From Campylobacterota bacterium (GTDB lineage Bacteria > Campylobacterota > Campylobacteria > Campylobacterales > Sulfurovaceae), in the NCBI GenBank assembly GCA_003252535.1, contig QKDN01000046.1, positions 27,183 through 91,182 of the forward strand: a stretch of 64,000 bases of DNA. The letters run 5' to 3'. Within the stretch, counting starts at the first letter, position 1, and each line of letters opens with the position of its first letter. Of the stretch, positions 12,624 through 32,397 are shown piece after piece. The translations under genes were made by a program, and so were the position numbers. The notes under the pieces are model-generated. The model was not told where the DNA came from, ran no database searches, and saw only the letters and a program-made list of their open reading frames with translations.

Positions 12624-12634
12624 TTTCCCTTTTC

Positions 12635-12662
12635 GTCTGTCCGGCTCCGGTCGGGACAGAAC
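12635..12662. terminator. putative bidirectional rho-independent terminator between convergent rplQ and GGDEF gene
   Basis: GTCTGTCC-GGCTCCGGTCGG-GACAGA hairpin directly after rplQ stop, followed by T-rich stretch. Confidence 0.45.
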
Positions 12663-12715
12663 TCCATTTATTACAATCCCTCCCTTACAAACCCACTCCC
12701 TGAACAAGATATCTT

Positions 12716-14464: not shown

Positions 14465-14602
14465 AGTTATCCCTTTTTACTTAGTATAGCAAGATGAATT
14501 ACCAAAATGCAAGAGATAAATTGAAATTATTCATTGTGAAAAGAAAAACAAACAGAAGCACTGTGTACAAGATTCATATGGACCGGGCTACGATCCCGGA
14601 AA

Positions 14603-17212
14603 CTAGTTCCGGGTGAAAAGCGAGAACGGCTGCGGGTAGAGATCGATAGCCAGCTGGCCGCTGCTGTTGTATCCCCATGCCCAGAGGGAACCGTCGCTCT
14701 TGATGGCGAGGGTGTGTTGGTACCCGGCATATACGCCGATCCAGTCGGTGTCGTTGCCTATCTGTACCGGGGAGTGACGCTCACTCTTCGTACCGTCGCC
14801 AAGCTGTCCGTAGTTATTACGACCCCATGCCCAGAGAGTGCCGTTATTCTTGATAGCTACGGTGTGGAATTGACCTCCTGAAGTAGCATTCCAGTCGGTA
14901 CCGATGCCAACCTGCACAGGCTCATTGCGACTGATGTTCGTATCATCGCCGAGCTGGCCGTAGTCGTTATTTCCCCATGTCCAGAGAGTACCGTTCTTTT
15001 TGAGCGCGATGACATGATCGGAACCTGATGATACACTGAGCCAACCAGAGCCTAAACCGGTATCTTTGGGTATCAGACTGTCAGAGTATGTCCCATCACC
15101 AAACTGTCCTTCGCTATTGTCCCCCCATGCATAGATAAACTGCTCCCAGACAGCAATAGAGTGGGCGCGTCCTGTCGCAACACTGTCCCAGATGACATGA
15201 GTTCCGTTTTGAACCGGGATATTGCTGTCGGTTGTAGAGTTATTGCCCAGCTGACCGTAATGGTTGTATCCCCACGCACGGGCAAAACCGTTGAGGGTAT
15301 GTGAATCCCCTGCAGCAATATCTTTCACCAAAAGGCCTGTATCATCGATAAATACCGGAGCCGTACGGTCTGTATTAGAGCCGTCGCCGACCTGGCCGTA
15401 CCAGTTGTCTCCCCATGCCCATATCTCATTAGTGCTTTTGCAGGCGACATTATGATACTTCCCTGCTGCGATACTAACCCATGTATCATCGCTTCCGACC
15501 TGAACAGGGTGATAATGCTGCGTCTTGCTTCCATCGCCGAGTTGTCCGTTGCTATTGTACCCCCATGCCCACAGTGTACCGTCATTCCTGATGGCAAGCG
15601 TATGGCTGCTCCCACCGTCTGCGCGCAGCCACTCGCTTTTTGTAAATTCCTGCTTCGGTGAGAGGCTGCCTATGGGGAGACTGTTGCCCAGCTGTCCGTA
15701 ATTGCTGTAACCCCATACGACAAGCGTACCGTTGCGTTTGACCGATATTGTATGGGAGATTCCCGAAGCGAGCGTGCTCCAGTCGTTCGCGCTCCCCACC
15801 TGTACGGGTGAGTTGTGATCGGTCATACTCTCATCGCCGAGCTGTCCGTAATTATTGTGACCCCACGCCCAGAGGGTAGCATTGGTTTTGACGGCAAATG
15901 TATGGTAGGAGCCGACGGCGAAATCACTCCAGTCGGTATCGACGCCGATCTGAACCGGGGTATCGCGATCGGTCGTCGAAGTATCCCCGATCTGTCCGTA
16001 TTCGTTAGATCCCCATCCCCAGAGAGAGCTGCCGCTTTTGATCGCAATGGTATGGCTCGCTCCTGCACTCACCGTGCGCCAGTCGGTATCGGCGCCCACC
16101 TGGACGGGGGCATTACGGCTGGTAGTGGAGCTGTCACCGAGCTGACCGTAGAAGTTGTATCCCCAAGCCCAGAGAGAACCGTCAGTTTTGATCGCGAGAG
16201 AATGGAAATCCCCCGCCGTAGCGCTGCGCCAGTCGCTTGCACTGCCTACTTGTACAGGAGCATTATGGTTGGTATTCGTCCCGTCGCCAAGCTGACCGTA
16301 AAAGTTGTATCCCCAGGCCCAGAGAGTACCGTCTGCCCTGAGCGCGACAGAGAAGGAGTACCCTCCGTCGACACTGCGCCAGTCGTTTGCCGTGCCGATC
16401 TGGACAGGGGTGGTGCGGTTGATATCGGTGCCGTCACCCAGCTGCCCTTTGTCGTTGAGCCCCCATGCCCAGAGAGTACCGCCTGTCTTGACCGCCAGCG
16501 TATGATATGCCCCGGTCGATACGCTGCGCCAGTCGCTCGCTGTCCCCACCTGCATAGGTGTAGAATTGCTTGTTCGTGTCCCGTCGCCGAGTTGTCCGTA
16601 ATTGTTGTATCCCCATGTCCAGAGTGTACCGTCACTCTTGACCGCAGCAGTGTGGTAGTTTCCTGCGGCGATATGCTTCCAGTAGAGGGAGTGGATCGAG
16701 ACAGAGATATCGACCGTGGCTACACCGTCGGAGATCGTGAAAGTACAGATGTCGGTGGCATTGGTCTCGACAATCTTGTGGTAGCTGACCGTATCGCCCG
16801 TGACGCTGCATGTACCGTAGCTTCCGTTGGTCTTGAGGGCGATGGTGAGGGTGTCGCCGTCATCGTCGCTCGCTGCCGATCCTATCTTCCAGTTGCTTGT
16901 TACCGTCGATTCGTTGACATCGAGTGACATGGAATAGCCGGTTGCAGTCGGCACAGCATTGGCGGGTGTGGGCGAAGTATCGTCGGTGACATCCTGCGCC
17001 GGCTCATCCGGAAGGGTCGTATTGGCTTCATCCCCGGAGGATACGTCGGTGGCAGAGGTGTTGGTATCCGTGATCAAGGGATCCGATATGATCGTGTTGG
17101 TGGTATTGTTGGTATCGGTAGTATCCACCGAACTACCGCCCCCGCCACAGCCGGTCATCAAAGCTATCGTCATACTCAGCAGCAGACGGCGCCAAAGATT
17201 CGTTGTTTGCAT
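14603..17212 (-). CDS. RCC1-repeat (beta-propeller) lipoprotein with Thr/Asp-rich linker and Ig-like domain
   Basis: 869 aa; lipobox LMTGC; about 13 tandem approx 50-aa repeats WAWGxNxYGQLGDGT typical of RCC1/ATS1 family; GC-rich. Confidence 0.8.
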   Translation of the reverse strand: MQTTNLWRRLLLSMTIALMTGCGGGGSSVDTTDTNNTTNTIISDPLITDTNTSATDVSSGDEANTTLPDEPAQDVTDDTSPTPANAVPTATGYSMSLDVNESTVTSNWKIGSAASDDDGDTLTIALKTNGSYGTCSVTGDTVSYHKIVETNATDICTFTISDGVATVDISVSIHSLYWKHIAAGNYHTAAVKSDGTLWTWGYNNYGQLGDGTRTSNSTPMQVGTASDWRSVSTGAYHTLAVKTGGTLWAWGLNDKGQLGDGTDINRTTPVQIGTANDWRSVDGGYSFSVALRADGTLWAWGYNFYGQLGDGTNTNHNAPVQVGSASDWRSATAGDFHSLAIKTDGSLWAWGYNFYGQLGDSSTTSRNAPVQVGADTDWRTVSAGASHTIAIKSGSSLWGWGSNEYGQIGDTSTTDRDTPVQIGVDTDWSDFAVGSYHTFAVKTNATLWAWGHNNYGQLGDESMTDHNSPVQVGSANDWSTLASGISHTISVKRNGTLVVWGYSNYGQLGNSLPIGSLSPKQEFTKSEWLRADGGSSHTLAIRNDGTLWAWGYNSNGQLGDGSKTQHYHPVQVGSDDTWVSIAAGKYHNVACKSTNEIWAWGDNWYGQVGDGSNTDRTAPVFIDDTGLLVKDIAAGDSHTLNGFARAWGYNHYGQLGNNSTTDSNIPVQNGTHVIWDSVATGRAHSIAVWEQFIYAWGDNSEGQFGDGTYSDSLIPKDTGLGSGWLSVSSGSDHVIALKKNGTLWTWGNNDYGQLGDDTNISRNEPVQVGIGTDWNATSGGQFHTVAIKNNGTLWAWGRNNYGQLGDGTKSERHSPVQIGNDTDWIGVYAGYQHTLAIKSDGSLWAWGYNSSGQLAIDLYPQPFSLFTRN

Positions 17213-17350
17213 CCTTGCTCCTTATGTGCACTCTATACATTGTACTGAAAAAAAGTTTCATTTCGATGGTTGATTCAAAAATTAGAGAAATTTATTTGTC
17301 ACCCGCCAAAAATTAATTCATCGATGTCAAAAAATACTAGCACATATGAG

Positions 17351-18646
17351 TTAAAAGGAAAATCTACAATCTGCTTTGTAGACACCGTTGATAGCTCGAT
17401 ATTGGCCAGTGCTTGTCGGATATACCCTATGGGCAAACCCATGGGGGGTGGCAACAATATCTACGTGAGTGCAGGCATCGTAAGTTGGTTGGGTGACTAT
17501 GGACATCGCAGGTGTCTTCCGCATAGGTCTTGAGAAACTCATATTTGTGGTCAATTGTGCAAACCCTCCCGCAAGTCCGTACAGGAAGCCATATCCTTTT
17601 CCATGTGCGTATCCCTGCCAAACATAGGTGGTAATCTCTTCTAATGCTTCTGAATATGTTTTGACAATGGGTGAAACATACCTATCCGTGAGAGTCAATG
17701 CAAAGTCGGTCATATAGATGGTATCGTTGGAAGAGGCTGTAGAGATTGTGATATAAAACCCATTTTCAAAATTTTCATAGTCATTTGAATCGAGTGTGAT
17801 TGTCAAAAGACCATCAGCACTTATAGTGGCTGTCGTAAAATACCGAGTTGTTGTAGAGGGGTTGTCTACAGCACCAAATGTACTGATGGAGAGAGTGGCA
17901 CTTGCAATAGAACCCCTTTGGAATAAGGTAGAAACGGTAAATTTCTTTCCTTTGAATTTTTTAGCAATATCACTGTCAAAGAACTGCCTGATCGAAGATG
18001 ACGTAGCTGTAGTGTGTGTGATCACAATGGCATTTTTGTCGGTCCCCGGGAATGTCCCTTTTGTGGCAGTTGAACCACTGTTCCCCGTCACAAAATATAC
18101 ATCGGCGACATATTTCGTACTGTTGTCAGCGGTCCAGGTAGTATTCCCTTCCTGCCATACATCCATATGCGGATTGAGTGCATAATTGAATGTATGAATA
18201 TTTTGTTCAATATATGTTACCAGTGTTGAGATATATGTTTGTGTGTATGCCATCGCTATCCAGTCATCTACACCAGCAGCCGGTGGATTGGATGAACCTG
18301 AGTGCGTATACCATAGGATATCAGCGGCCAGCACGACCGTCTCCGGTGCTACAGTACCGCTCCCCGTATAGTTGGGATCGTAGCTGCCGTTTGCCAGCGC
18401 CTGGACTATAGCCGTACTCGACACGACCTCAGCGTGCTTGGTATCGATATCCGCACTTGCAGCATTGATACCGGTGATGACCGCTTGCAGCTTTGAGATG
18501 AATGCGGTGATCTCCGGCAGGATGGTCGTTTTCCAGTAGCTCAGCCAGCCGCTTGCTTTGGAGTTGAATGTCGTTTTCCCCTCGGCGATGAGCGGCACAT
18601 CAGGGGCATCGGTAAATTCATGATCTATTTGGTCTATTTGTGGCAT
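17351..18646 (-). CDS. phage tail fibre / receptor-binding protein, paralog 1
   Basis: Start taken at MPQIDQIDHEF (RBS AAGGAG upstream); first about 100 aa identical to next gene, C-terminus divergent, Ser/Thr-rich. Confidence 0.6.
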   Translation of the reverse strand: MPQIDQIDHEFTDAPDVPLIAEGKTTFNSKASGWLSYWKTTILPEITAFISKLQAVITGINAASADIDTKHAEVVSSTAIVQALANGSYDPNYTGSGTVAPETVVLAADILWYTHSGSSNPPAAGVDDWIAMAYTQTYISTLVTYIEQNIHTFNYALNPHMDVWQEGNTTWTADNSTKYVADVYFVTGNSGSTATKGTFPGTDKNAIVITHTTATSSSIRQFFDSDIAKKFKGKKFTVSTLFQRGSIASATLSISTFGAVDNPSTTTRYFTTATISADGLLTITLDSNDYENFENGFYITISTASSNDTIYMTDFALTLTDRYVSPIVKTYSEALEEITTYVWQGYAHGKGYGFLYGLAGGFAQLTTNMSFSRPMRKTPAMSIVTQPTYDACTHVDIVATPHGFAHRVYPTSTGQYRAINGVYKADCRFSF

Positions 18647-18690
18647 TTTTTTCTCCTTAGTATGATTGGATGAAGCTCTCTCGAAGAGGC
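18393..18690. repeat. direct repeat copy A (5' end of tail fibre gene plus about 40 bp upstream), about 90% identical to 19711..20010
   Basis: Direct nucleotide comparison of the two regions in this window. Confidence 0.85.
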
Positions 18691-18797
18691 ATTTGATACA
18701 CCTCTTCAAATGAAGTGTAGTTTCTGAGCCAAGAAATGACTCGAACTCAATATCTTGAAACTCTCAGTTCGCAACGATAAGTTGTGTCATTCTCATG

Positions 18798-19964
18798 CTA
18801 CACTGCGGTGATAGTGCATTGGCGATCAGAACCAATGCCGGGATGTGGTTGACTGTAGTTAGCGATTGCCATAGTAATAGTCAAGGTCGTACTCTCTCCT
18901 GAGGAAAGTGCGGATGTATCAATGGTAGTCGATGTAGTAGTATCACCAACACCAATCGTGACATAACCGTCTCCTCCATCGAAGATAATATAAGATTCAC
19001 CCAGTGATGGCGCATGACCCAATGCTAATGATACATCAACAGATTGTGTCCCTGCCGGTATCTGTATATCCGTTACAGGGAAGTACGCTTCGTAGGGCAT
19101 ATATTCGTCTCCTACTTCAACTGTGATATTGAAGTCGACATCGATGAGGTTCGTTGCTACTACCGGCTTAAAAAAGGTGTACACTTTGGCACTATCGACG
19201 AAGATGAACTGGTTTATCAGTTTTGCCGTATCCACTGATGAGAACGGTGCTGACATTGAGGTGGCTGGGCCGACAGTACCAACAGATTTTTCTGTATATT
19301 TGATATGACCGAATACACCGAGGTCGTGAGCAATCTTTAATATGTCGAGATTCGCATAGTACACAGTTCCGGCGACGAGATTCTGACTGTACGTGACAGA
19401 AAAGCTCCCCGTGATCTGGCAAAATGTACCCTGTCTGATAAGTCTCAAATCTACTTTATGTAGGTACTTTTCGGTTCCGGAAGGGGCTGATATGTCGAGA
19501 ATATCACTATTGCCATATTCTATAAGATAGCTCTCCGAATAGAATCTTGCTTCTCTCATGACGGGTGACACCATGATCCAGTCCACGCTTGATATGTTGG
19601 GCACATCTTCCGTACCGTTCGGCGTGTACCATATCGCGTCGTTGTATGATACTGTCGTATTCGCTGCCACGGTGCCGCTTCCTACATAGTTCGGCATGTA
19701 AGTACCATTCGCCAGCGCCTGGACTATAGCCGTACTCGACACGACCTCAGCGTGCTTGGTATCGATATCCGCGCTGGCTGCATTGATACCGGTGATGACA
19801 TCGCGCAGTTTCGAGATGAATGCGGTGATCTCCGGCAGGATGATTGTCTTCCAGTAGGTCAGCCAGCCGCTTGCTTTGGAGTTGAATGTCGTTTTTCCCT
19901 CGGCGATGAGCGGCACATCAGGGGCATCGGTAAATTCATGGTCTATTTGGTCTATTTGTGGCAT
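18798..19964 (-). CDS. phage tail fibre / receptor-binding protein, paralog 2
   Basis: Start at MPQIDQIDHEF; N-terminal about 100 aa identical to paralog 1; distinct C-terminal domain. Confidence 0.6.
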   Translation of the reverse strand: MPQIDQIDHEFTDAPDVPLIAEGKTTFNSKASGWLTYWKTIILPEITAFISKLRDVITGINAASADIDTKHAEVVSSTAIVQALANGTYMPNYVGSGTVAANTTVSYNDAIWYTPNGTEDVPNISSVDWIMVSPVMREARFYSESYLIEYGNSDILDISAPSGTEKYLHKVDLRLIRQGTFCQITGSFSVTYSQNLVAGTVYYANLDILKIAHDLGVFGHIKYTEKSVGTVGPATSMSAPFSSVDTAKLINQFIFVDSAKVYTFFKPVVATNLIDVDFNITVEVGDEYMPYEAYFPVTDIQIPAGTQSVDVSLALGHAPSLGESYIIFDGGDGYVTIGVGDTTTSTTIDTSALSSGESTTLTITMAIANYSQPHPGIGSDRQCTITAV

Positions 19965-20010
19965 TGCTGCTTCTCCTTCTAGTTTTGTTGTATGAAGCTC
20001 TCTATATCGA
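19711..20010. repeat. direct repeat copy B (see 18393..18690)
   Basis: Direct comparison; same orientation as copy A. Confidence 0.85.
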
Positions 20011-20905
20011 GTGAGCACTGCGACATCGAAGCGTTCTCATAGACCTGCACCATGGAGGTGTAGTATCCGAATTGTAAGAACGCCTCCACGCCGTCCATCA
20101 GTCTGAACATCGTCGCCTTGTTCGAGAGGCTGTCGAGCTTCTTTTTGGCAGCATCGAAGCTGTCCGAGGCAAGCTTGATATCGCAGCTGATAAGGTTGGC
20201 AAGGTCGCCTTTGACGAGCTGCACCTTCCCGAATGCATTCTTCTCCGGTTGCCGCGGATTCACCTGGGTGACCGATGCGCCAAACTGCGTACATCCGATC
20301 CCCTCTGTCCTCCCGGCGACGATAAATGCAAGCTCGGCAGTCGCAGTATCAGGCGTATGTATGATGATCTCTACTTTTTGTGAGAAATCTATAGTAAGCG
20401 GATGCGCTATGTTGGCACGAATGTCGCTGGGTACATCATATAAAAACCAATCATACAGATTGTCCGGCCCGCCATCATCGATGATGTCGTAAGTCGTATC
20501 GGCTATTATATCGCCCGTATCGTTGCGCTCAATCACCTGTACAGAGGCGCCCAGCACCCCCATGATCGCCAGCATATTGCACTTGTTACATGAGAATATC
20601 ACATGGAGATCTCCCACACAGGAACATACTGCCGTGGTCTCGCCGTGCTCGCTCATGATCTGATTGTAGGCGGTCAGCATAGCTTTAGAATTTACAGGCT
20701 GCTGTGGATACCACTTCGCAGACACGTTCGGTAGCTCAGTATCTGCTGTCGTGGTATCCTCGGTACACAGGTAGATATAGTCGTTGTATATCCTGTACTC
20801 ACCGGCTGCCACTACAGCGCCAGATACCCAGTCCGGGTATGTCTCGTCTATGGCATTGGTTTCCAGCTGCTCTATAGCCCTTGGTTCTACTACCTCAAAT
20901 TCCAT
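19979..20905 (-). CDS. phage tail structural protein, putative distal tail protein (Dit-like)
   Basis: 308 aa, located between tape measure and fibres as Dit is in siphovirus tail modules; no motif confirmation. Confidence 0.4.
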   Translation of the reverse strand: MEFEVVEPRAIEQLETNAIDETYPDWVSGAVVAAGEYRIYNDYIYLCTEDTTTADTELPNVSAKWYPQQPVNSKAMLTAYNQIMSEHGETTAVCSCVGDLHVIFSCNKCNMLAIMGVLGASVQVIERNDTGDIIADTTYDIIDDGGPDNLYDWFLYDVPSDIRANIAHPLTIDFSQKVEIIIHTPDTATAELAFIVAGRTEGIGCTQFGASVTQVNPRQPEKNAFGKVQLVKGDLANLISCDIKLASDSFDAAKKKLDSLSNKATMFRLMDGVEAFLQFGYYTSMVQVYENASMSQCSLDIESFIQQN

Positions 20906-20906
20906 C

Positions 20907-23900
20907 TTATGCCCTCGCCTTCACTTCGGTATAGAAGTTGTTCTTTTTTGTAGTCTTGAGCGTCTCTGCCGAGATCGCGTTCATCTCTTTGATCGTCTTT
21001 ATCAGCTCCATATTTTGCGACACCATAGAGCTCATCGACTTCTGCATATCCTGAAAGCTTCGCGTAGATACACGATCGACAGCAGTTGCCAGCTGCGGCG
21101 CCAACAGTCCGAATGACTGCTTGATATCCTGGGAGCCGGAGACGGATGCTTTTGCCGCTGTACTTGCAAGCTGCTGGGCAGTAGACGCAGATGATCTGCG
21201 CGTCCCGGTAGAGGCATTTGCAACCGTGCTCGCCAGTAGAGCCGCTGATTCAGTAATATATTTTTTGTCAGACTCTGATATTTTTTTCCCGGTGTTGGGC
21301 TGGGTGCCACCGCCCTCCCTGGCGATCAGTGCATCTATCATTTTGATCGCCGATGCGTTCACACTCTCGTCGATCTTGAGCAGCGTGGCGTCTATATTCT
21401 CGAGCAGCGCCTGCTCGGGAGGTGTTGCTATCCCCTGTATGTCAGCATTGGCTTTGGTGATCATAGAGATGAATTCCGCTTCGTTCCTAGCCGAGCTCTG
21501 CGCCTTTTCTGCAAAGTTCTGATAGGCGCCGGATACCCCTGCATAGTCACCGTTGTTGATCGCTTGCGACAGGAGTGTTTGGGACTGCGCCACCGTCCCG
21601 ATCGTGTACGAGCGCAGCGTCTCCATAGATGACTCTTTGGCCGAGAGTATGGATTCGCGCAGTGCGTTCGAGGCCTCTATCTCGGCGTTGATCCCGTCGA
21701 TCCTGGTCTGCTCTAGCTCTTTGAGCCTGTCCTTTTCTGCATTCGCCCAGGTATCTATCTGGGAGAGAACATCTTCTGATGCGACGCCCGATCTGATATT
21801 CTTCTGGATACCCGATGCAGTGATTTTGGCCGGCGTCGTATAGGCTGCCTTCGCATCGAGCAGCGTCTGCATAGCCGCCGCCCTCTCGTCTGCGAGCTGT
21901 TGCTCGTTGTCCATGAGCTGCTGCTGCATATCATAGAGTTCTGCGAACTGCGGAGAGAGTTCAAGGAGCTTGTCCTTGAGGGTCTCACCTGTCTTGCCGG
22001 TGAAGCTGAGCGAATCTACCAGATTTTTGAATTCTTCTTTTGTCTGTGGCATAGTGAGCCCAAGTGCATTCATGCTGTTCTGCAAATCTCCGGCAAGCAT
22101 GGAGGCCTGCTCCTCCGTGGAGTAGAAGCTACCTATAAAGCTATCAAGTGCTGCTTGTCTCGTGTCGTTGAGCTGCTGCTCCATATCATAGAGTTCTACG
22201 AACTGCGGAGAGAGTTCAAGGAGCTTGTCCTTGAGGGTCTCTCCCGCTGCTCCGCTGAGACCGAGCGAGTCTGCCAGTTTATTGAATTCTTCTTTCGTCT
22301 TTGGTGTCATCGTGTCTGCGTTTCCACTGAAGCTGAGCGAATCTACCAGATTTTTGAATTCTTCTTTTGTCTGTGGCATAGTGAGCCCAAGTGCATTCAT
22401 GCTGTTTTGCAAATCTCCGGCAAGCATGGAGGCCTGCTCCTCCGTGGAGTAGAAGCTGGAGATGTAGCTGTCCAATGCTGATTGCCTCTTATCCGCGAGC
22501 TGCTGCTCCATGTCGATCATCTTGGCATACTCCGGGGAGAGTGCTATGAGTTCGCCATAGAGCTTGGCACTCTCCTCGTCCGTTACTTTGAATCCCTGGA
22601 TCAGATCGGCAAAACCTTCGGCTGTGTCGGGGAGCTTGATACCAAGAGTCTTGGCCGAGCTTTCCAGGTTGTTTTTGACGATGTTGTACTGTTCCTGGTC
22701 CGAGAGGAAGTTTTGCTGGAATGACTGCATGGCAGACGAGAATGCATCCTGACCACCGGCAGCTTCTACCACATCGAGGGTGGCCTCCTGCGCAGAATAT
22801 ATCTTGCCCCATCCTTTGCCGAAGCTTGCCATTGATGATGCCATTTGTACAGCCATAGAGGAAGCAGCATCCATATCCCCGTTCTGAATAGCTGCTGACA
22901 TGCTCTTAGCCATAGTAGACATGGAGTTGCCGGTCTTATGTGACTTGACTATATTGTCGCCTATGATGACGCCGATATCCTCCAGCTGTGCTGAAGACTG
23001 CTCGTATGTGACCGCCAGACGCCCAAGCGTCTCCAGACCATCCTCCCCTGCCTTGCCGTATTTATCTACCCAGCGGTCGATTTCACCTACGCCGCCAAGT
23101 ACCCCAGAGAAATACTCGCTATACGCCGCCTCTATACGTTTTGATGCCTCTTCTGGCGACAACCCCTCAAGGTCTATCTTGCCGATCTCGACCTCGACCT
23201 TCTTGAGCGCATCTTCGTATTGACCGAGCCCGAGCGTCCCGATCGCCTCGAAGATGAAATCATAACCCTCCTGGAACGCCTCTGTGAAATATGACTGCTG
23301 TTCAGCAGTGAGGTCGATGACGGTATCTTTTGTGTACTGCTTCGTCGACAGCCCGAAATATTTTTTCTTCGTGATGATCTCTGTCGTATACCCCTGTACT
23401 ACGCCATCCATGAAGGTATCGTAGCTTGAAGCCCCCATGATCACTCCGGTGCTGAGCATCTCCCGGGAAGTCGAGCTCCAGATGCCTCCTGATTGCGACG
23501 GCTTGTAGTCAGCCCCCGTCAGGTCGACCCCTGCCGATCCGGCTACGGAAATGGCTTTCCCTATGAGAACGAAGTTCTTGTCCATTGAGGCGAGATACTT
23601 CGTCATCTGGTAGGTAGATTCGAGCAGCGGGTCCTGTGCACTCTCGAATATCCCTTTCAGATTTGCCAGTGACTCGTCTGAGAAGTCCGTGCGCCCTTTG
23701 GCTGCTTCTTTTTCTGCATCGGTGAGGGTATCGGTGAGGGATGACGACAGAAATGAAAGTCCTACCCCGATGGCCATTGCAAAGACATTACCGCTCATCC
23801 CCCCCAGGCTATTGAGCCCGGAGCTTAAGGTGGATGCAAGCGACTCCGAGAGGTTGTTGACTATCGGTTTGACGAGCTCTGAGGAGACTCCATCGACAAA

Positions 23901-25859
23901 ACCTTTGAACGCACCGGAGAAGTCCCCTTTGAAAACACCCCCCAGCAGCCCTTTGAACTCGTCGGTGAAGTCGAGTGCGCCGCCATGGTGTTTCTTCCAC
24001 ATTGCGTCATTGGCTTTAGCGACATCTTCAGCGGTCATTTTCCCGGCAGCCCTGAGCTTCTCGAATTCTTTCTTCGCCTCTGCTGCGTCAAGCTCGAAGA
24101 GTTTTTCCTTCTGTCCTGTCAGCTCCAGGAATTTGCGGTAGGATGATTCCAGGTCTTTGGTGGATGAGGCTGCATTCTTCACGCCTGATGCGTGTTCTTT
24201 TGCCGCATTGACCCCTTTTTTCCCGCTTTCATCAGCCTTTTTCCCCATATCTTCGGTCGCTTTTGACAGCTCTTTGGTAGATGCGGTTTCTTTGGCAGTT
24301 TCCTTTGTTACCTTGCCTGTACCCGAAGCAATCTTTTTCCATGTATCTGCTATCGCATCTGCTGTGGTAGCCTGAGTCTTGTATGCTTCGTTAAGTGATG
24401 CATTTGTGCTTCCCGTATCGATGAGCTTTTTGGTAGATTTCGTTGCAGCTTCGATAGATGATTCGTACGAGCCTATAGATATAACGATAGGCTTGAATGG
24501 GTTTTCCTTTCCCGCTAACGCAAATACATTGTCAAAACCAGAAGAAAACGAATTGATAAACTCCGATACAACCCTGAGCAATCCATTGATCATAGCATAG
24601 AAACCCTCGCCGATAGCATCTACTACAAACTTGAAAGTGTTCTGCATAGATACAGTCAGAGAGTTCCATCCATCGCCTATTACATTGATTCCATCTTCAA
24701 TACCCAGTACTACTTCGTAGAAGCCAACGCGCAAGGTTGCTCCCATGTTCAGGAATCCAAGCCCGGCAAGCTGTGCAGTAGAACCGACATGAACCCCTAG
24801 TGCTGCTATGAGATCAAGAACCCCATTGACCTCGTCTTTGATTTGCAGAAAGTCCAGTGCGCCACCCAAGGCATCACTGATACCTTCACCCACGACAACT
24901 ATTGCTTGAGGAAGATATGAAAAAGTGTCGTATATATCCCCGGCCATCGTGACGAAAGTACCGGTTACGGATTGTCCGATACTGGCTGCTTCTGGTCCGA
25001 GGTCATTGAGTATGCGGGTGAGCTCTTTCGCCCCATCTTTCTGCGCGTCGAATATCGGCTGTGTGATCTTCCCGGCGAACATATCCCATGTCGTGCTGAG
25101 GTTGGACATGGCGTAGGCGTATGTATCCTGCTCGGTACCGGTCTCGCTGAGTTTCTCTTTGAGGAACGCTACTTTGTCCCCGGCGGCAGCGTAGGATTCT
25201 TTGGTGACGCCAAGTGTCTGCATCATCTTGCCGAAACCGCTGTTGGCATCCCATGTGCCGTCCGCCATATCGTTGATCCCGGCTGAGAGATCATCGGTCG
25301 AGAGGTTCAGGTTGGATGCGCTGTTGGTGACGAGCTTGAGTATATCCGCCTGATCCTTGAGCGCCCAGTTGTTGCGCTCCATCCCCGGTTTGGCGAGGGC
25401 ATAGATATCGACGAGCTCGCTCATCCCCCTGCCGGTCTTTGTGCTGGTCTTCTCGAGGAGTGACATCATCGCCGCCACTTCGCCGGATACGAGCTTCTGC
25501 CGCTCCATCGCCGTGACCTGTTGCCCTGTTGTGAGCGTCAACCCTTTGGATGCCAATACGATCGCTGTCAACTTTGCCTTGCTAGCGTCCATGGTCTTGT
25601 TGTATTCAAGACCGCTATGCATGACAAAATCGAATGCCTGTTTGAGCGATATGATCTTTCCGACACTCGAGCCCAGATCGCTGATGGTGTTTTTGATACG
25701 GCCGATGGCAGAGGATGTCTGCGCAGCCTCGGTTTTGAGACTGTCGAACTGTGTCAAGACGACACTTATATCCCCTGTCCTGGCATCGACCGAGAGGACG
25801 ATCTCAAGATTCTGTTGCATTTGCCTGTACCCCCCGCTCGATGGTTTTGATATTTTCAA
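20907..25859 (-). CDS. phage tail length tape measure protein
   Basis: 1650 aa, largely alpha-helical/low complexity, internal tandem repeats (MPQTKEEFKNLVDSLSF...LKDKLLELSPQF.ELYDM), directly downstream of G/GT chaperone pair; possible alternative start at MQQNLEIV (25820). Confidence 0.85.
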   Translation of the reverse strand: MKISKPSSGGYRQMQQNLEIVLSVDARTGDISVVLTQFDSLKTEAAQTSSAIGRIKNTISDLGSSVGKIISLKQAFDFVMHSGLEYNKTMDASKAKLTAIVLASKGLTLTTGQQVTAMERQKLVSGEVAAMMSLLEKTSTKTGRGMSELVDIYALAKPGMERNNWALKDQADILKLVTNSASNLNLSTDDLSAGINDMADGTWDANSGFGKMMQTLGVTKESYAAAGDKVAFLKEKLSETGTEQDTYAYAMSNLSTTWDMFAGKITQPIFDAQKDGAKELTRILNDLGPEAASIGQSVTGTFVTMAGDIYDTFSYLPQAIVVVGEGISDALGGALDFLQIKDEVNGVLDLIAALGVHVGSTAQLAGLGFLNMGATLRVGFYEVVLGIEDGINVIGDGWNSLTVSMQNTFKFVVDAIGEGFYAMINGLLRVVSEFINSFSSGFDNVFALAGKENPFKPIVISIGSYESSIEAATKSTKKLIDTGSTNASLNEAYKTQATTADAIADTWKKIASGTGKVTKETAKETASTKELSKATEDMGKKADESGKKGVNAAKEHASGVKNAASSTKDLESSYRKFLELTGQKEKLFELDAAEAKKEFEKLRAAGKMTAEDVAKANDAMWKKHHGGALDFTDEFKGLLGGVFKGDFSGAFKGFVDGVSSELVKPIVNNLSESLASTLSSGLNSLGGMSGNVFAMAIGVGLSFLSSSLTDTLTDAEKEAAKGRTDFSDESLANLKGIFESAQDPLLESTYQMTKYLASMDKNFVLIGKAISVAGSAGVDLTGADYKPSQSGGIWSSTSREMLSTGVIMGASSYDTFMDGVVQGYTTEIITKKKYFGLSTKQYTKDTVIDLTAEQQSYFTEAFQEGYDFIFEAIGTLGLGQYEDALKKVEVEIGKIDLEGLSPEEASKRIEAAYSEYFSGVLGGVGEIDRWVDKYGKAGEDGLETLGRLAVTYEQSSAQLEDIGVIIGDNIVKSHKTGNSMSTMAKSMSAAIQNGDMDAASSMAVQMASSMASFGKGWGKIYSAQEATLDVVEAAGGQDAFSSAMQSFQQNFLSDQEQYNIVKNNLESSAKTLGIKLPDTAEGFADLIQGFKVTDEESAKLYGELIALSPEYAKMIDMEQQLADKRQSALDSYISSFYSTEEQASMLAGDLQNSMNALGLTMPQTKEEFKNLVDSLSFSGNADTMTPKTKEEFNKLADSLGLSGAAGETLKDKLLELSPQFVELYDMEQQLNDTRQAALDSFIGSFYSTEEQASMLAGDLQNSMNALGLTMPQTKEEFKNLVDSLSFTGKTGETLKDKLLELSPQFAELYDMQQQLMDNEQQLADERAAAMQTLLDAKAAYTTPAKITASGIQKNIRSGVASEDVLSQIDTWANAEKDRLKELEQTRIDGINAEIEASNALRESILSAKESSMETLRSYTIGTVAQSQTLLSQAINNGDYAGVSGAYQNFAEKAQSSARNEAEFISMITKANADIQGIATPPEQALLENIDATLLKIDESVNASAIKMIDALIAREGGGTQPNTGKKISESDKKYITESAALLASTVANASTGTRRSSASTAQQLASTAAKASVSGSQDIKQSFGLLAPQLATAVDRVSTRSFQDMQKSMSSMVSQNMELIKTIKEMNAISAETLKTTKKNNFYTEVKARA

Positions 25860-26058
25860 GCGTATCCAGAGTATCTACGCCATATTTTCTGGCGTACTCG
25901 AATACGGTAGTAGGATCGATATAGATGGCAAATCCATTCCCGATCCTGCTGTTGGCCCATACGCGAATATGCCACAGGCTCCACTCATCCTCGAGGAACA
26001 CCAGTCCGTGCTCCTCTCTGTACCACTCTTTCCTCTTCTCGATCTCCTCGCTGTCCAT
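25804..26058 (-). CDS. tail assembly chaperone T-domain ORF (expressed as G-T fusion by -1 frameshift)
   Basis: 84-aa ORF in the -1 frame relative to upstream G-like gene; open through from slippery site; classic gpG/gpGT arrangement. Confidence 0.6.
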   Translation of the reverse strand: MDSEEIEKRKEWYREEHGLVFLEDEWSLWHIRVWANSRIGNGFAIYIDPTTVFEYARKYGVDTLDTLENIKTIERGVQANATES

Positions 26059-26117
26059 CCCCTCGAAGCCCGGCGTATCGCCGTTCGAGAGCTGTGTAGC
26101 GTAGGAGATGAGGTCTT

Positions 26118-26663
26118 CTACTTTTTTTTACGAGCCTCTGCTGCCAGGCTGGCAAGCTCCTGGTATGCGACCGTGAAGGCGAAGTTGAGCTCTTCGAGAC
26201 GGTTGACGAGCTTCTCTTTCTCAGGTCCGTCCTGGATGCCGATGAGGAACATCTCTTTGGCGATCGCATTGTCGCGTCTGTTTGTCGCTTCGATCTCCTT
26301 CGCACGGCTGTGTCTGGCGTTGATCTCTTCGAACTGGTCTTCGAGCTTTCGCTTGTCCGTTCGCATCGCCTGCACTTCCTGGAGCATCGTCTTCTTGATC
26401 GAAGCGTCCTCTTCGAGCGGGATGATCTGGAGAAGTCCGGAGATATCTTCTGTGACCCGGTTCAGTCTTTTCGAGACAGCTTCTTTCTCTTTTGCCGCAT
26501 CGATGATCGGGGCAAACTCCTCGTCGATCGCTGCGAATCTCTCCTCCATCTCCGGTGTGTCGATGAGCTCTTTGGGAGAGTTGAGATTGGCGGTGATGTG
26601 GTAGGTCTCTACCGTATCGCCCGCTTTGATTTTGAAGTCTAGTTTTGTCGTGTTCTGGATCAT
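26118..26663 (-). CDS. tail assembly chaperone (lambda gpG-like)
   Basis: 181 aa acidic protein between major tail protein and tape measure; ends ...AEARKKK* on the slippery heptamer. Confidence 0.65.
   Translation of the reverse strand: MIQNTTKLDFKIKAGDTVETYHITANLNSPKELIDTPEMEERFAAIDEEFAPIIDAAKEKEAVSKRLNRVTEDISGLLQIIPLEEDASIKKTMLQEVQAMRTDKRKLEDQFEEINARHSRAKEIEATNRRDNAIAKEMFLIGIQDGPEKEKLVNRLEELNFAFTVAYQELASLAAEARKKK
26121..26127 (-). promoter_or_regulatory. programmed -1 ribosomal frameshift slippery heptamer A_AAA_AAG (minus strand) overlapping the G-gene stop
   Basis: Minus strand reads cgt-aaa-aaa-aag-tag; a -1 slip gives GTA GAA GAC ... continuing without stop into ATG GAC AGC of the 25804..26058 ORF; frames verified by coordinate arithmetic. 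Confidence 0.6.
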
Positions 26664-26682
26664 GATATTTCCTTATTTATGA

Positions 26683-27612
26683 CTACGCATGGTATTTGCG
26701 TAGTTCGAAGTTGTCGTCTCCGTTGACCTTGCGGCACTCAAGTGTCCTCTCGATATTGATCAGACCGTCTTTCTTTGGTTTTTTCTGGCTGATCACCACA
26801 CATTTTGGAGCGATGAGCTCCCACTGTTTCGTCCCGTCCACGCTGAAGAGAGGGATGACGAAGTTGAACTCGGTACCGCTCTTGAGGTCGGCGAACGCAC
26901 CTGCATTGTCGGGGTCTGCGACCATCGTGACGGTGAGCTGCGGCTTCGTATCCATCGTGTAGCACGAGCCGCTGCATGTGTCTTTTGGCTGCTTGACATC
27001 TGCGCCCAGCGAGAAGTCCACCTTGGTGAAGTGCGCCTCCTGGCCGTTGACGAGGTATGCCGTACAGTTCTTGGTCATGTAACACTTCTCGAAACTCGGT
27101 ACCGATGGGAGCACGGCATCATCATCCACTGCGTCGAGCGATACCGCTTCATGCAGCTGGCTTACCATCTTGAAGCTCATCAGAGCCGCTTTGCCCACCT
27201 CGAAAGAGAGGTCGACGCTGGCTCTTGCCCCGTAGACCGCCGTGTGCTCTCTCAGACCGAGCTGCTTGAGCGATGCCGTGCTCTTCGATGTCGATGAGTA
27301 GGCGTATGATGTCCCTTCTGCGAATGAGGTACCGACAAGACCGCACATACCAAGCAGCGGCTCGATGAGAGTATGATCGGTCGGGATCTTGATCGAAATA
27401 TCCGTCTCTACCCCTGCGAAGTCCGCGATGACTGTGGTCTCTTTGGAGCCGTGATGCGCTGAGAGCGGATCGTTCTCATCCGTATCTACTTTGGGTTCCC
27501 AGAGGTCGCCCCCTTTTTCCATCGGTAGTACTACATCCGGTTCTACATATGTCCCCGGTACTGCTTCTGTTTTGATCTTGACGACTACGCCGTCTCTTGT
27601 ATATCCTGACAT
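26683..27612 (-). CDS. phage major tail (tube) protein
   Basis: 309 aa, position immediately upstream of G/GT/TMP, conserved synteny. Confidence 0.6.
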   Translation of the reverse strand: MSGYTRDGVVVKIKTEAVPGTYVEPDVVLPMEKGGDLWEPKVDTDENDPLSAHHGSKETTVIADFAGVETDISIKIPTDHTLIEPLLGMCGLVGTSFAEGTSYAYSSTSKSTASLKQLGLREHTAVYGARASVDLSFEVGKAALMSFKMVSQLHEAVSLDAVDDDAVLPSVPSFEKCYMTKNCTAYLVNGQEAHFTKVDFSLGADVKQPKDTCSGSCYTMDTKPQLTVTMVADPDNAGAFADLKSGTEFNFVIPLFSVDGTKQWELIAPKCVVISQKKPKKDGLINIERTLECRKVNGDDNFELRKYHA

Positions 27613-27615
27613 GGT

Positions 27616-27750
27616 TTATTTCTCCTTCTCTTTTTGTGGTGTAGGTTTTTTGGTTGTCCAGCCTTTGGCGATCCAGACAGTTTCCTGGCTCTCTGGTATC
27701 GTAAGCGGCGCGCCGTTCTTTGCATAGATCGTAATCGTTCTTTCTGTCAT
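27616..27750 (-). CDS. small phage tail-module protein (44 aa)
   Basis: MTERTITIYAKNGAPLTIPESQETVWIAKGWTTKKPTPQKEKEK; stop 3 nt before major tail ATG; not in ORF track (<60 aa). Confidence 0.35.
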   Translation of the reverse strand: MTERTITIYAKNGAPLTIPESQETVWIAKGWTTKKPTPQKEKEK

Positions 27751-27758
27751 GCTCTCTC

Positions 27759-28097
27759 CTATCTGATATCTTTGTATGTCACATTGAGCGTACACAGCAG
27801 CAGCCCCGATTCGGTGATGCCCGGCTGTGTCGTATCGGTATTGGATATATCGTATCCGCTCATCGATGCTTCGTAGAGCTTCTCCTCTATATCGTCCACG
27901 GTTGCCTCGAGAGCGGTGAGCGAGAAGTCTGCGACGATTATCCCCAGATGCCTCTCCGTTACCCCGATCTCCAGTCTTTCCATCCCGCCATAGAGGAGGA
28001 ACACCCCGCTCTCATTGACTCCAGTGACATCTGCGTCATTGATCGTCATGGGGGCGAGAGCCTCTCTGAGGGCGGCTTTGCTCGATGCGATACTCAT
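27759..28097 (-). CDS. phage tail completion/terminator-like protein
   Basis: 112 aa, first gene of tail operon next to divergent late-promoter region. Confidence 0.4.
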   Translation of the reverse strand: MSIASSKAALREALAPMTINDADVTGVNESGVFLLYGGMERLEIGVTERHLGIIVADFSLTALEATVDDIEEKLYEASMSGYDISNTDTTQPGITESGLLLCTLNVTYKDIR

Positions 28098-28406
28098 CGG
28101 CAGAGAGCTCCGCCCATCCGTACGCTTTTTCCTGTCCTATGTCCGTCTTCCAATCACTCCTCCTTCAAGTCGTTGTAGAGTCGCAGTATAGCAGTGGGAG
28201 GCGCTCGGGGTCACTCCATATACATGGATATCGAGTGACTTTGCTCCCGGGCTTCTCCTATACTTCATCCGAAACTACACAGGCCGGGTGCCGGCATACG
28301 GCAGGCGGGATATCCCGATAGCAGATATCGGGCAGGCCGGCAGAGAGACCCGGAACGAAGCCCGCTCCGCGCTCCCGCCGACTCCGGCAAGTACAGGACA
28401 AACACA

Positions 28407-28574
28407 ATGAAGATCAAAGAAGAGATCACCGCGATCATGCTCCGTGCAAAGAGTTTCGAGGAGGCGTTCGCCCTCCTTGCCGATGCCTGTCCCGATATGG
28501 ATATGGAAGCGCTTGAAGAGGCGTTCATGGGAGTGATGGAGAACGGGGAGCTGACGGGGACGGAAAGCAGCTGA
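28407..28574 (+). CDS. small acidic hypothetical protein (55 aa)
   Basis: MKIKEEITAIMLRAKSFEEAFALLADACPDMDMEALEEAFMGVMENGELTGTESS; first ORF of rightward late/lysis transcription unit; not in track. Confidence 0.3.
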   Translation: MKIKEEITAIMLRAKSFEEAFALLADACPDMDMEALEEAFMGVMENGELTGTESS

Positions 28575-28663
28575 GTGGAAGAGTGTATGCGGCGTGTGCC
28601 GTTTGGATGATTACGGGCGATTTAACGCCTGTTTAACGCATAGTATATATATGGAGGTGACTG

Positions 28664-29008
28664 ATGTTTGATATATTCGGTAAAGCAAGTGTGTGGATCA
28701 ACGAATCGCAGGTCATGGTCGCGGTGATATTCGGGGCGTTCGTGCAGTTCTTCTTCGGCAAGACGAAGAACGCGAAGGTCGCCGTCACCGTGGTGGTGAG
28801 CTCGATATTCGTCGCGCTCTATATCGTCCCGCCCATCGTGGAGCTCCTCAGGATAGCCAGTGACGGCTCGTGGGCGATCACCCTCTATGCCCTCTCCTCC
28901 GTGGTATCGATAGAGATACTTTCTATGGTGATAGCGATCCTGCCGCTCGCCATGAGGGAACGGGTGGAGGAGTATCTCCAGATCATGGAACATAAGGAGC
29001 CGAAATGA
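28664..29008 (+). CDS. holin-like membrane protein (3 TM)
   Basis: 114 aa, three hydrophobic helices, charged C-terminus, immediately upstream of spanin pair; opposite-strand ORF 28622..28993 is an antisense artefact. Confidence 0.5.
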   Translation: MFDIFGKASVWINESQVMVAVIFGAFVQFFFGKTKNAKVAVTVVVSSIFVALYIVPPIVELLRIASDGSWAITLYALSSVVSIEILSMVIAILPLAMRERVEEYLQIMEHKEPK

Positions 29009-29094
29009 GGATCAGAACAGTCCATTACCCCTACGCGATCATCCTGATAGCGGCAGCGGTACTCATCATCTCTCTGATCGGAGCTGCAAGATGA
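29005..29094 (+). CDS. small single-TM protein (29 aa), possible antiholin/lysis accessory
   Basis: MRIRTVHYPYAIILIAAAVLIISLIGAAR; ATGA overlap with holin stop and with downstream start. Confidence 0.25.
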   Translation: MRIRTVHYPYAIILIAAAVLIISLIGAAR

Positions 29095-29402
29095 TACCGG
29101 GATTTGTCGGCAGATACTGGCCGCTGCTCGTCGCCCTCTCGGGGGTGCTGTATCTGTATCATACGATCGACTCGCTCGGGACGCAGCTGGGAGCGTGTCG
29201 TGCAGAGCTCACGAGGATCGACGCCGTAGCCGCAGAGCAGAAGCGCCGGTACGAGGTCTCTGTGAGGAATTATGAGGATGCCATTATCAAAACGGCCAAT
29301 GCATACGAAGAGGATATCAGGAAGATAGAAGAGTTCAAAGGAGAAGCCAATGAGACGAGCTGTCAGAGCGCTGAGCGTATGTTTGACGGTTTCAGCTATT
29401 AG
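29091..29402 (+). CDS. inner-membrane spanin subunit (Rz-like i-spanin)
   Basis: 103 aa, N-terminal TM then coiled-coil periplasmic domain. Confidence 0.5.
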   Translation: MIPGFVGRYWPLLVALSGVLYLYHTIDSLGTQLGACRAELTRIDAVAAEQKRRYEVSVRNYEDAIIKTANAYEEDIRKIEEFKGEANETSCQSAERMFDGFSY

Positions 29403-29589
29403 CGGCTGCACGGGCACTGCACCGCTGCCGGCACCGCAGCCGTGCGTCACGCCGACGGTAGCCAGACCGGTGATGGACAACAGCCGCTGCGGCGATATCC
29501 TCTGCCGCTCGCGCCAGTGCCTGCACAACTACATCGCCATGCGCGCCTACGCCGAGCGTCTCGAAGCGGCGGCATCGGTATGCCGCTAA
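29350..29589 (+). CDS. outer-membrane lipoprotein spanin subunit (Rz1-like o-spanin), overlapping i-spanin in another frame
   Basis: 79 aa, lipobox AISGC, Pro-rich mature region (APLPAPQPCVTP), starts inside i-spanin gene. Confidence 0.55.
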   Translation: MRRAVRALSVCLTVSAISGCTGTAPLPAPQPCVTPTVARPVMDNSRCGDILCRSRQCLHNYIAMRAYAERLEAAASVCR

Positions 29590-29736
29590 GCCGCTGCGTT
29601 ACCCGCGGCAGACGCCCCGGAAATATGAGTCAAAAAAGATAAAGTTCAGAGAGATGAGGTGAAGCGGATGCGTCCAGACCTCTTTGGAGAAGATATAAAA
29701 AAGAAGATGGATACCCCCGCCGGGCGGCGGATCGGG

Positions 29737-29946
29737 TCATGCGTACTGTCTCTTGGGGGGCAGGTCGATATCCTTGTCCACCTCGACGCTGTGTCTGGCG
29801 TACTCCCTCCAGTAGTCGTCGAAACGGATCGCTTCGATGGTCTGGAATGTAGCGTCGCACTGCGTACACTTGCGGAACCTGTGGGTAGTGGGGCCGCGCA
29901 CCGTACCCACTACGCGGGTCGTCCCCTGACACTTTGGACAATCCAT
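29737..29946 (-). CDS. Ogr/Delta-type C4 zinc-finger late transcription activator
   Basis: 69 aa, CPKCQ...x22...CTQC spacing as in P2 Ogr. Confidence 0.55.
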   Translation of the reverse strand: MDCPKCQGTTRVVGTVRGPTTHRFRKCTQCDATFQTIEAIRFDDYWREYARHSVEVDKDIDLPPKRQYA

Positions 29947-29956
29947 CTCTGACCCC

Positions 29957-30355
29957 CTACAGTTTTTTGATCGCGATGATCACCGCGCTTGCCTGTATTT
30001 TACTCAGAATAGATAAACTTAACGGCATGACACCCACGACCCGTCTGACATAATGCATCAGAGCAGGCTGCGAACTCTCCCGCGCCCTCTCGAGCCACAG
30101 CTTCTCTATCGTCGCTATCTGCGCTCTGGTCGCCATCCCTTCGCGCTCACCCGATATCTCGGGCTCCATCCTGCCGTCCATCACGCCGAGCAGGTTCCTG
30201 AGCTCGTCGATGGAGAGTCTGCCGCTGCTTGCCACGCCGTAGTTTTCCATCAGGAATGCCTCCCACCCGTCGCTCTGTTTGGCGCTTTTGTACCACGGGT
30301 GGATGTGGATGCGCCGCAGCAGGTTCCTGCGGTATATCTGCTGTCCTTCTGTCAT
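29957..30355 (-). CDS. GemA-like (Mu gp16, DUF1018) regulatory protein
   Basis: 132 aa; YRRNLLRRIHI...SIDELRNLLGVMDG pattern matches the GemA family. Confidence 0.55.
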   Translation of the reverse strand: MTEGQQIYRRNLLRRIHIHPWYKSAKQSDGWEAFLMENYGVASSGRLSIDELRNLLGVMDGRMEPEISGEREGMATRAQIATIEKLWLERARESSQPALMHYVRRVVGVMPLSLSILSKIQASAVIIAIKKL

Positions 30356-30816
30356 GGATGCTCCTTTGCTCTGTTCTCCCGTATCCGGGTCTGTATCCTC
30401 TCGAAGCTCTTCCTGAGCTGCTCGTCCTGCGTCAGGATGGCGAACTCTCCGCTGCTGCGTTCATGCGGCGCGTCGTCGCCCCTGTCTGTCGTCTGCTGCT
30501 TCGGCTTCAGCCTCGCCGCTATGTCGCGGAACCATATCTTCCCCTGCATCCGCTCGTCGACAAATATCTGCCGCATCCGGCGCAGCACATCCTCTTTCGT
30601 CCCGGCGAACTCCCGGACGATCCCCGGATGATCGAAGTGCAGCACGAGCGCCCCGCCGTGGATGGAGCCGTAGTGGAAGTACTTCTGCTGCCGCTCGTCA
30701 AGAGCCCCGGCGAGCTTGCGGATCAGCTCTGCCTCGGCGAGCTTCGGCGAAGAGAGGGCGCTCCCGCTCCCGATCTGCTCGTCTGTCCTTTTGCATACTG
30801 CATTGGGTATCATCAT
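30352..30816 (-). CDS. phage hypothetical protein
   Basis: 154 aa, ATGA-coupled to gemA-like. Confidence 0.45.
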   Translation of the reverse strand: MMIPNAVCKRTDEQIGSGSALSSPKLAEAELIRKLAGALDERQQKYFHYGSIHGGALVLHFDHPGIVREFAGTKEDVLRRMRQIFVDERMQGKIWFRDIAARLKPKQQTTDRGDDAPHERSSGEFAILTQDEQLRKSFERIQTRIRENRAKEHP

Positions 30817-30875
30817 CCCTCCTTCTGTATAGATTCATTCGAGCCCACCGCGGTGGGTTCGGTGAAGCTACCGTG

Positions 30876-31451
30876 CTATGCTGCCTCCATGATATTCATC
30901 CCCGCCCGCAGCAGCGCGGAGCGGAAGAGGAGCTTCGTGTTCGCCATCGTCTGCGGCGTCATGGGGATAGCGGGCAGTGACGGGAAGACACTGTGCGCCG
31001 CTTCGACGATCGCAGCGTCCCATCCCCAGTCGGCGATCCTCTCAGCTCCGTAGAAGGTCACTGCCTCGATATAGAGGGCGATCAGGTCGGCGCGTTTGAT
31101 CTGTGGCGTGTCGATCTGCACCCCGAAGTGCTGTTCGATAGCCCGCTCGATCCGCTTCTCCAGGCTCTTGTAGATGCGCCCGGAGTTGGACTTGATGGGT
31201 GAGATCATGTCCCCGGTGTACGCCTCCGCCGCATCGTGCAGCAGGGCGCCGAGCCTGTGCTCCGGCGATACGATCCGCGCTACGAGCATACTGTGTTCGG
31301 CCACGCTGTAGAGGCGCGGCGTGTGTCCGTTGAACCTCCCGATAGCGCTGAGAGAGTGGATGATATCCTCGATGTCTATCTGGGAGCTGTCGATGTGCTT
31401 CCAGAACCAGATGCGCTTGCCGCTGTATGTGTCGAGAAACTGCTCCATCAT
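30876..31451 (-). CDS. HD-domain phosphohydrolase
   Basis: Start at MMEQFL; H..HD motif (HSMLVA...LLHDAAEAYTGD); ATGA overlap with upstream M15 gene. Confidence 0.55.
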   Translation of the reverse strand: MMEQFLDTYSGKRIWFWKHIDSSQIDIEDIIHSLSAIGRFNGHTPRLYSVAEHSMLVARIVSPEHRLGALLHDAAEAYTGDMISPIKSNSGRIYKSLEKRIERAIEQHFGVQIDTPQIKRADLIALYIEAVTFYGAERIADWGWDAAIVEAAHSVFPSLPAIPMTPQTMANTKLLFRSALLRAGMNIMEAA

Positions 31452-32379: not shown

Positions 32380-32397
32380 TGTATTCTCCTTGTTGTT

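Follow-up and report, generated by a model that had tools for sequence, protein, structure and literature searches.

The locus is an ordinary prophage-host junction zone, a decayed example of a kind already known, in the window analyzed here (the whole stretch of 64,000 nucleotides). The segment 17213..17350 is probably the spacer between the last fibre gene of a defective, head-deleted Mu-like prophage and the host gene for an RCC1-repeat lipoprotein, with attR or its remains lying in the spacer or directly beside it. The 80 bases (17241-17320) that a preliminary description had flagged as a candidate right terminus fall inside this spacer, and the right edge of the prophage is probably nearby. 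All the strings and coordinates quoted in that description are correct, and the AT-rich gap that it reported between the last fibre gene and the RCC1 gene measures 138 bp and has a GC content of 32%.

Judged by its genes, the element belongs to the Mu-like prophages and occupies about 21.5 kb of a Sulfurovaceae chromosome. An HTH/S24 repressor gene (37847..38488, + strand) points toward the left end, as does the repressor gene of Mu, and the early region (29746..37607, - strand) is predicted to encode a Zn-ribbon protein, GemA, an HD protein, an M15 peptidase, Gam, a MuB-like ATPase, a MuA-like transposase and an AAA_25 protein. The predicted MuA-like DDE transposase (34508..36400, - strand; 630 aa) matches PF00665 (rve, E 2.5e-8) and PF09299 (Mu-transpos_C, E 2.3e-11) and aligns to the TnsB catalytic core, with the D and E contexts present; its relatives occur in Sulfurovum, Sulfuricurvum and other Campylobacterales. 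The gene for the MuB-like ATPase (33780..34481, - strand; AAA_22, E 6e-14, and TniB, E 3e-5) lies directly downstream of the transposase gene, and Gam and GemA were matched by Phage_Mu_Gam (E 6e-34) and GemA (E 6e-11), respectively. The AAA_25 (RepA/RecA-like) gene (36648..37607, - strand) lies between the repressor and transposase genes. Since its homologue is located just before GemA in three related prophages (L002, L003 and L184, introduced below), the early region has been rearranged.

Beyond the early region, gene calls and homology identified a lysis cassette of holin-like, i-spanin-like and o-spanin-like genes (28664..29588, + strand). The tail module then runs toward the right end and comprises genes for a phrog_6278 protein, a 1650-aa tape measure, a 181-aa chaperone-like protein, a 309-aa tube-like protein and a 112-aa protein (19979..28097, - strand), followed by two fibre-like genes. 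The last of these encodes 452 aa (17351..18709, - strand) and has no family match, so that its putative role as a tail fibre is assigned from its position; the preceding fibre-like gene encodes 406 aa (18798..20018, - strand) and has its N-terminal part in common with the last one. At the DNA level, the two share a 300-nt stretch of 89% identity (18338..18637 and 19656..19955) that codes for the N-terminal part, after which they diverge, and a contig of an independent Logan assembly breaks within this repeat. The tape-measure gene also contains internal tandem duplications of about 255-327 nt that are 85-88% identical (21908..22514). Both prophage-host junctions are continuous in the independent Logan assembly (two contigs, SRR7216773). 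CzcA, encoded on the opposite flank, shares 85% identity with CzcA from a Sulfurovaceae MAG. The host DNA to the right of the czc operon carries a 29-nt inverted repeat (44395..44423 and 58582..58610), the arms of which are 90% complementary and 14 kb apart.

On the basis of its gene set, the prophage is defective and has lost its head genes. A portal remnant (28275..28559, + strand) retains coding sequence for only ~95 residues at the C-terminus of a Mu-type portal protein. It is 33% identical to the L184 portal over residues 341-435 (E 6e-15), has stop codons just upstream in frame and marks the deletion. A tblastn search with the proteins of the related prophages detected no trace of the terminase, MuF, tail_S or protease genes, and the capsid gene is also absent; a complete set of virion genes is thus lacking. 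An intact holin/spanin cassette, a complete-looking tail module and the transposition genes have been kept beside the remnant (context 27600..29950). Given the large deletions that the prophage has undergone, it is a real possibility that its right end is eroded or has been lost.

The closest relatives that we identified are Mu-like prophages of uncultured Sulfurovum/Sulfurovaceae, namely L002, L003 (FAXN01000021.1), L184 and L185/L186. Their transposases are 43-53% and their repressors 63-73% identical to those encoded here, and they share with the present element the order of the early genes and a tandem of three 11-bp units at the inner edge of attL. Unlike the present element, they have kept the terminase, Portal_Mu, Mu_F and protease genes. 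The gene order in L184, L003 and L002 is early genes, GemA and Zn-ribbon, then an inverted block of tail_S, Mu_F, lysis, Portal_Mu and terminase, and then the protease and following genes in the early direction. The tail genes of these relatives run toward the right end, which makes the spacer the zone in which attR would be expected.

The left terminus could be defined in L002, L185/L186 and L003, because their mutual similarity stops just outside TGAG(C/T)TACA(C/G)C-TGTGGGAAGACGGAAA. Flank divergence thus gives TGAGYTACASC-TGTGGGAAGACGG as the left terminus of the relatives (TGAGYTACASCTGTGGG... in three of them), located at 2367 in L002, about 7229 in L185 (reverse strand) and 7661 in L003 and reading 5'-TGAGYTACASCTGTGGGAAGACGGAAA. 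The first bases are TGAGCTA in L002 and TGAGTTA in L185/L186, compared with TGAACTA at window position 38777. The relatives differ from the present element in this left terminus (TGAGYTACASCTGTGGGAAGACGG) and in their repeated core, which is ACGGAA and not TTGG/CCAA. In L002 and L003, the subsites with the ACGGAA core are about 20, 109 and 131 nt from the terminus, a spacing that resembles the L1, L2, L3 layout of Mu as taken from the Mu sequence. We also observed that, in different assemblies, the same host loci are occupied by related prophages: L187 and L189-L192 by a TetR gene, and L002, L185 and L186 by exbB-exbD. As L187 and L189-L192 represent one insertion beside the TetR gene, they are unable to define a terminus. 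The L187 type has another repeated motif at its left end, GTTTTAC, and one copy of this motif also lies in the window (38725..38731).

Comparison with phage Mu itself shows the same overall plan, with a repressor gene directed toward the left end, the A and B proteins, Gam, GemA and tail genes directed toward the right end. The repressor of Mu is Mu c, whereas that of the present element is a CI/LexA-type S24 protein. Moreover, unlike in Mu, no subsite consensus is demonstrable at both ends here, no 5-bp duplication is visible and the word shared between the two ends is in direct orientation; inside its left end, the present element additionally has three 11-bp units in tandem and an array of CCAA motifs. 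In Mu, there are three MuA sites at each end with differing spacings, of which L1, R1 and R2 form the core (PMC3145075). The inducible prophage CMLP1 (CJIE1) of Campylobacter jejuni RM1221 is another Campylobacterota Mu-like prophage that encodes MuA and MuB homologues, and its S24 repressor shares about 41% identity with the one found here. CMLP1 has TG termini flanked by the 5-base direct repeat TATGC (PMC539331), whereas the present element shows no such target duplication and has no head genes. From the gene content, we infer a mechanism of the Mu type for the ends of this element. A functional end would then act as in Mu: the MuA-like DDE transposase would bind several subsites near each end and pair the ends, nick the DNA at the 3' CA, and join them to a target whose two strands are cut 5 bp apart.

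The 250 bp that follow the repressor gene are highly non-random. An imperfect palindrome, TTTTGGCAacGACAccccTGTCacTGCCAAAA, lies directly after the repressor stop codon (38493..38526, no strand); it folds (z = -2) but has no T tail. Its right arm is TGTCACTGCCAAAAA (38511..38525, + strand). There are also three tandem 11-bp units (38537..38569, + strand), which read inward as ATTGGCGAACA, TTTGGCGAACA and TTGACGAATA, and the same stretch holds two copies of TGTTCGCCAA, at 38539 and 38550 (+ strand). Homologous triplets, reading inward ATTsrnsGAACA, are found in L002 (2587..2622), L003 (7889..7925), L185/L186 (6986..7019 in L185) and L188 (1379..1413), and the sequence of the unit differs from element to element in this clade of Campylobacterota Mu-like prophages. 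Since these triplets are at the same place in the relatives, the left 250 bp after the repressor gene belong to the element. The segment 38519..38696 carries 11 CCAA motifs on a single strand (+), often 10-11 bp apart. This density is about 20-fold above the window average of about 0.5 per 250 bp. The same segment also looks like two diverged direct repeats of ~105-110 bp (GTGCTTGG ... GTTGGGGA ... TTTTTGGnnGTGnCA).

To place the left terminus, we scored all 23 CA positions of the left side against the 32-nt terminus of the relatives. The highest score, 17/32 against the L002 terminus, was obtained for 38777 (38746..38777, - strand), which reads inward as TGAACTATTCAATCTGGCAAACAACTGTAATG; the background of 32-mers has a mean of 9.7 (sd 2.4), and only 0.47% of the TG-starting 32-mers in the window reach 17 or more, which after correction for the 23 candidates corresponds to about P=0.1. 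Position 38763 scored 15/32, and 38752, the partner end proposed in the preliminary description (CATTACA, 38746..38752, + strand), scored 8/32, below the background mean. The distance to the tandem triplet is 219 bp from 38777 and 194 bp from 38752, compared with 223-230 bp in the relatives. Because of both the terminus match and the triplet spacing, 38777 is preferred over 38752 and is, tentatively, the most likely left terminus, and the position proposed earlier is probably 25 bp off. Either of 38763 and 38752 taken individually is a rather unlikely candidate.

On the right side, the spacer (17213..17350, no strand) extends from the stop codon of the last tail-fibre gene to the start of the RCC1 gene, which encodes a protein of 869 aa with a lipoprotein signal peptide and is preceded by a strong AAGGAG ribosome-binding site. 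The spacer contains 10 TG dinucleotides, of which TGTACTG (17241..17247, + strand), the candidate right terminus of the preliminary description, is one, and no feature marks out any of the 10 as the terminus. Neither a terminator nor another structured element was detected in it by RNA folding (z = 0). Its single non-random element is the word TTGTCACCCGCCAAAAA (17296..17312, + strand), which includes the CCAAAAA site quoted earlier (TGTCACCCGCCAAAAA, 17297..17312, + strand). It matches TTGACACCCACCAAAAA (38633..38649, + strand) at the other end at 15 of 17 positions in direct orientation, and it is the sole spacer word common to the other end above chance. The TG at 17297 stands at the start of this word, and a related sequence, TGTCAAAAAAT, is found 21 nt further in. 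A 15/17 match occurred in 0.7% of shuffles, or in 1.3% when either orientation was counted, with the word length k=17 having been picked after the fact. A degenerate form of the 17-mer was found in the two end regions only within the 64-kb window, even with three mismatches allowed, a result that is partly circular as the pattern was built from these two copies. The word belongs to the motif family TGWCAC-N-CCAAAA, of which there are three copies at the repressor end and a single copy in the right spacer. The left end thus carries the 11 CCAA motifs, the tandem triplet and the three TGWCAC..CCAAAA copies as possible repeated subsites. We regard the 17-bp word as a candidate protein-binding site, which may represent an oppositely oriented subsite like Mu R3.

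We considered the possibility that the spacer is essentially host DNA, namely the promoter region of the RCC1 gene, and that the right terminus either abuts the fibre stop codon or has been deleted. The TG at 17347, which is 4 nt from that stop codon, reads TGAGTTA, the same 7 nt with which the left terminus of L185/L186 begins, and this sequence is also close to the TGAGCTA of L002 and the TGAACTA at 38777. A complete promoter-like site, TCGAAA-16-TACAAT (17239..17266, - strand), occupies part of the spacer about 30 nt upstream of the RCC1 start and its ribosome-binding site, with seven consecutive T just before the -10 box. In addition, the prophage has lost its head genes at least, and an eroded or missing right end predicts the lack of both target duplication and inverted similarity that we observed. 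However, with 10 candidates a 7-nt match would arise by chance with a probability of roughly 0.03-0.08, the flanks (ACATA and AATAT) do not match, and a terminus at this position would place the transposase-binding sites in the fibre coding sequence, where no matching motifs were seen. The promoter scan found one site against 1.0 expected, which is not above chance; TACAAT is well placed as the -10 box of the RCC1 gene, but the promoter call is only suggestive. This explanation would also turn the shared 17-bp word into a coincidence (P about 0.01). We therefore consider it unlikely in comparison with an attR zone in or beside the spacer.

The preliminary description had proposed an exact element from 17241 (TGTACTG...) to 38752 (...CATTACA), with ATGGTTRATT and CCAAAAA as transposase-binding repeats in mixed orientation. 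This pair conforms to the 5'-TG...CA-3' rule, and both of its ends read TGTA like the left end of Mu; since the right spacer has 10 TG and the left region 23 CA positions, the conformity is trivial. It has also to be noted that the ends of Mu are inverted-repeated only weakly. A T run after the presumed second subsite lies 104-108 nt from 38752, compared with about 114-116 nt from the TGAG terminus in the relatives (106-111 from a provisional TGTGGG), so that the agreement is weaker than with the provisional terminus. Against the proposal, the matches between its two ends are those expected by chance. TG-starting 7-mer pairs that match at 6 or more of 7 positions across the two regions numbered 9 versus a shuffle mean of 4.4, and at least one such pair of the TGTACTG/TGTAATG type occurred in 98% of the shuffles. 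ATGGTTGATT (17266..17275, + strand) matches ATGGTTAATT (38706..38715, - strand; AATTAACCAT on the + strand) at nine of 10 positions and was the only inverted 10-mer pair that differed at no more than one position, against 1.9 expected; a 9/10 inverted match like ATGGTTRATT was found in 82% of dinucleotide-preserving shuffles. Furthermore, two of the three far-end motifs had been assigned to the wrong strand: ATGGTTAATT does read inward as described, but TGTCACTGCCAAAAA and the TGTTCGCCAA repeats share the + strand with the 17297 site, and therefore constitute direct and not inverted repeats.

Broader comparisons gave the same picture. The best local alignment of the spacer with the reverse complement of 38489..38967 scored 15, compared with a shuffle mean of 18, and extension of the right side by 290 bp into the fibre gene again revealed no inverted similarity to the left-end region. 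In a list of the longest inverted-repeat pairs of the window, there was none that joins the spacer to the left-end region. Terminal transposase-binding sites in inverted orientation at both ends were thus not found, the inverted similarity being no greater than the shuffle expectation, and among the shared features only the CCAAAAA word beats chance (P~0.01). The flanking 5-mers of the proposed pair, TACAT and GTTGT, agree at only one of five positions, which confirms the mismatch already reported in the preliminary description. Among all TG..CA pairs, there was no exact 5-bp (or 4-6 bp) target duplication except for two implausible ones, and the six pairs with a 4/5 flank match are about the number expected by chance. 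The terminus pairs 17227/38793, 17267/38714, 17297/38506 and 17347/38777 were tried as well, and each lacks a matching duplication. A 9-mer direct repeat, GTTGTTTGC (17202..17210 and 38753..38761), was rejected as a target duplication because its first copy is located inside RCC1 codons 1-4, downstream of the RCC1 ribosome-binding site, and because chance alone would give about 0.3 such matches; its second copy starts directly outside 38752, and the pair is probably a coincidence. Finally, a terminus at 17241 would split the TACAAT -10 box, which TGTACTG overlaps on the RCC1 strand. Taken together with the low score of 38752, these results make the exact pair improbable. What stands of the suggested resemblance to Mu att ends is the Mu-like nature of the element, the direction of the tail genes toward the right end in the relatives and the dense repeats at the repressor-proximal end; the heptamer and ATGGTTRATT are at chance level, the CCAAAAA motif is direct and the 5-bp duplication is absent. 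The caveat of the preliminary description that the exact termini are not established remains valid.

A further possibility is that the element is a head-less Mu derivative that has been kept for its intact tail module, its lysis genes and its regulators, which would make it a tailocin-like unit of the F type that still has transposition genes. It may also have unusual, asymmetric ends, with a phased one-strand array of 11 repeats and the tandem of three 11-bp units at attL and a single direct copy of the site at attR, and the tandem triplet would perhaps be an end-proximal enhancer-like element without a Mu counterpart. We consider this combination very unlikely. It is also very unlikely that the RCC1 lipoprotein gene, alone or together with the GGDEF gene next to it, is right-end cargo and that the true terminus is in 14465..14602 or 12624..12715: Mu-like phages often carry accessory right-end genes, and the RCC1 gene directly follows the tail genes on their strand and has a GC content (0.53-0.58) similar to that of the element, but neither gap shows left-end similarity in either orientation, no TG in them has both a matching 5-bp flank and a plausible left partner, the sole exact 5-mer matches (14562, AGCAC) pair with CA 38686 and 38695 inside the repeat array with a terminal identity of 7-8/25, the gene has its own lipoprotein signal peptide, ribosome-binding site, promoter-like site and terminator hairpin, and the ribosomal genes rplQ and rpoA come immediately after.

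An empty site, with which the preliminary description had proposed to fix the junctions, was not found in the searched collections; exact look-ups with CzcA and RCC1 matched the occupied site only, in one Logan sample. Among the genome contigs scanned with CzcA, the best match was 85% identical and had neither synteny nor alignable DNA downstream of czcA. Among the metagenome contigs scanned with the CzcA C-terminus, the best matches were 82-89% identical, with no RCC1, GGDEF or rplQ gene beside czcA. The 90% clusters of CzcA, CzcB, the GGDEF protein and the repressor have one member each, and the searched collections thus contain no strain-level relative. Neither the transposase nor the phrog_6278 protein had a match among the viral contigs scanned. 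For the latter, the protein search and the phage records yielded no homologue either, and the terminal 16-mer of the relatives gave only chance matches in viral contigs.

The main outcome of this analysis is the correction of an over-reading, in that the prophage is crippled and its resemblances to Mu ends are at chance level. For specialists in transposable phages, the clade offers features of modest interest, namely the TGAGYT termini, the Mu-like spacing of the three ACGGAA subsites and the conserved tandem triplet. If its ends can be defined, the element would represent one more (defective) Mu-like prophage from uncultured sulfur-oxidising Campylobacterota, and it would inform on the end architecture of a poorly known clade.
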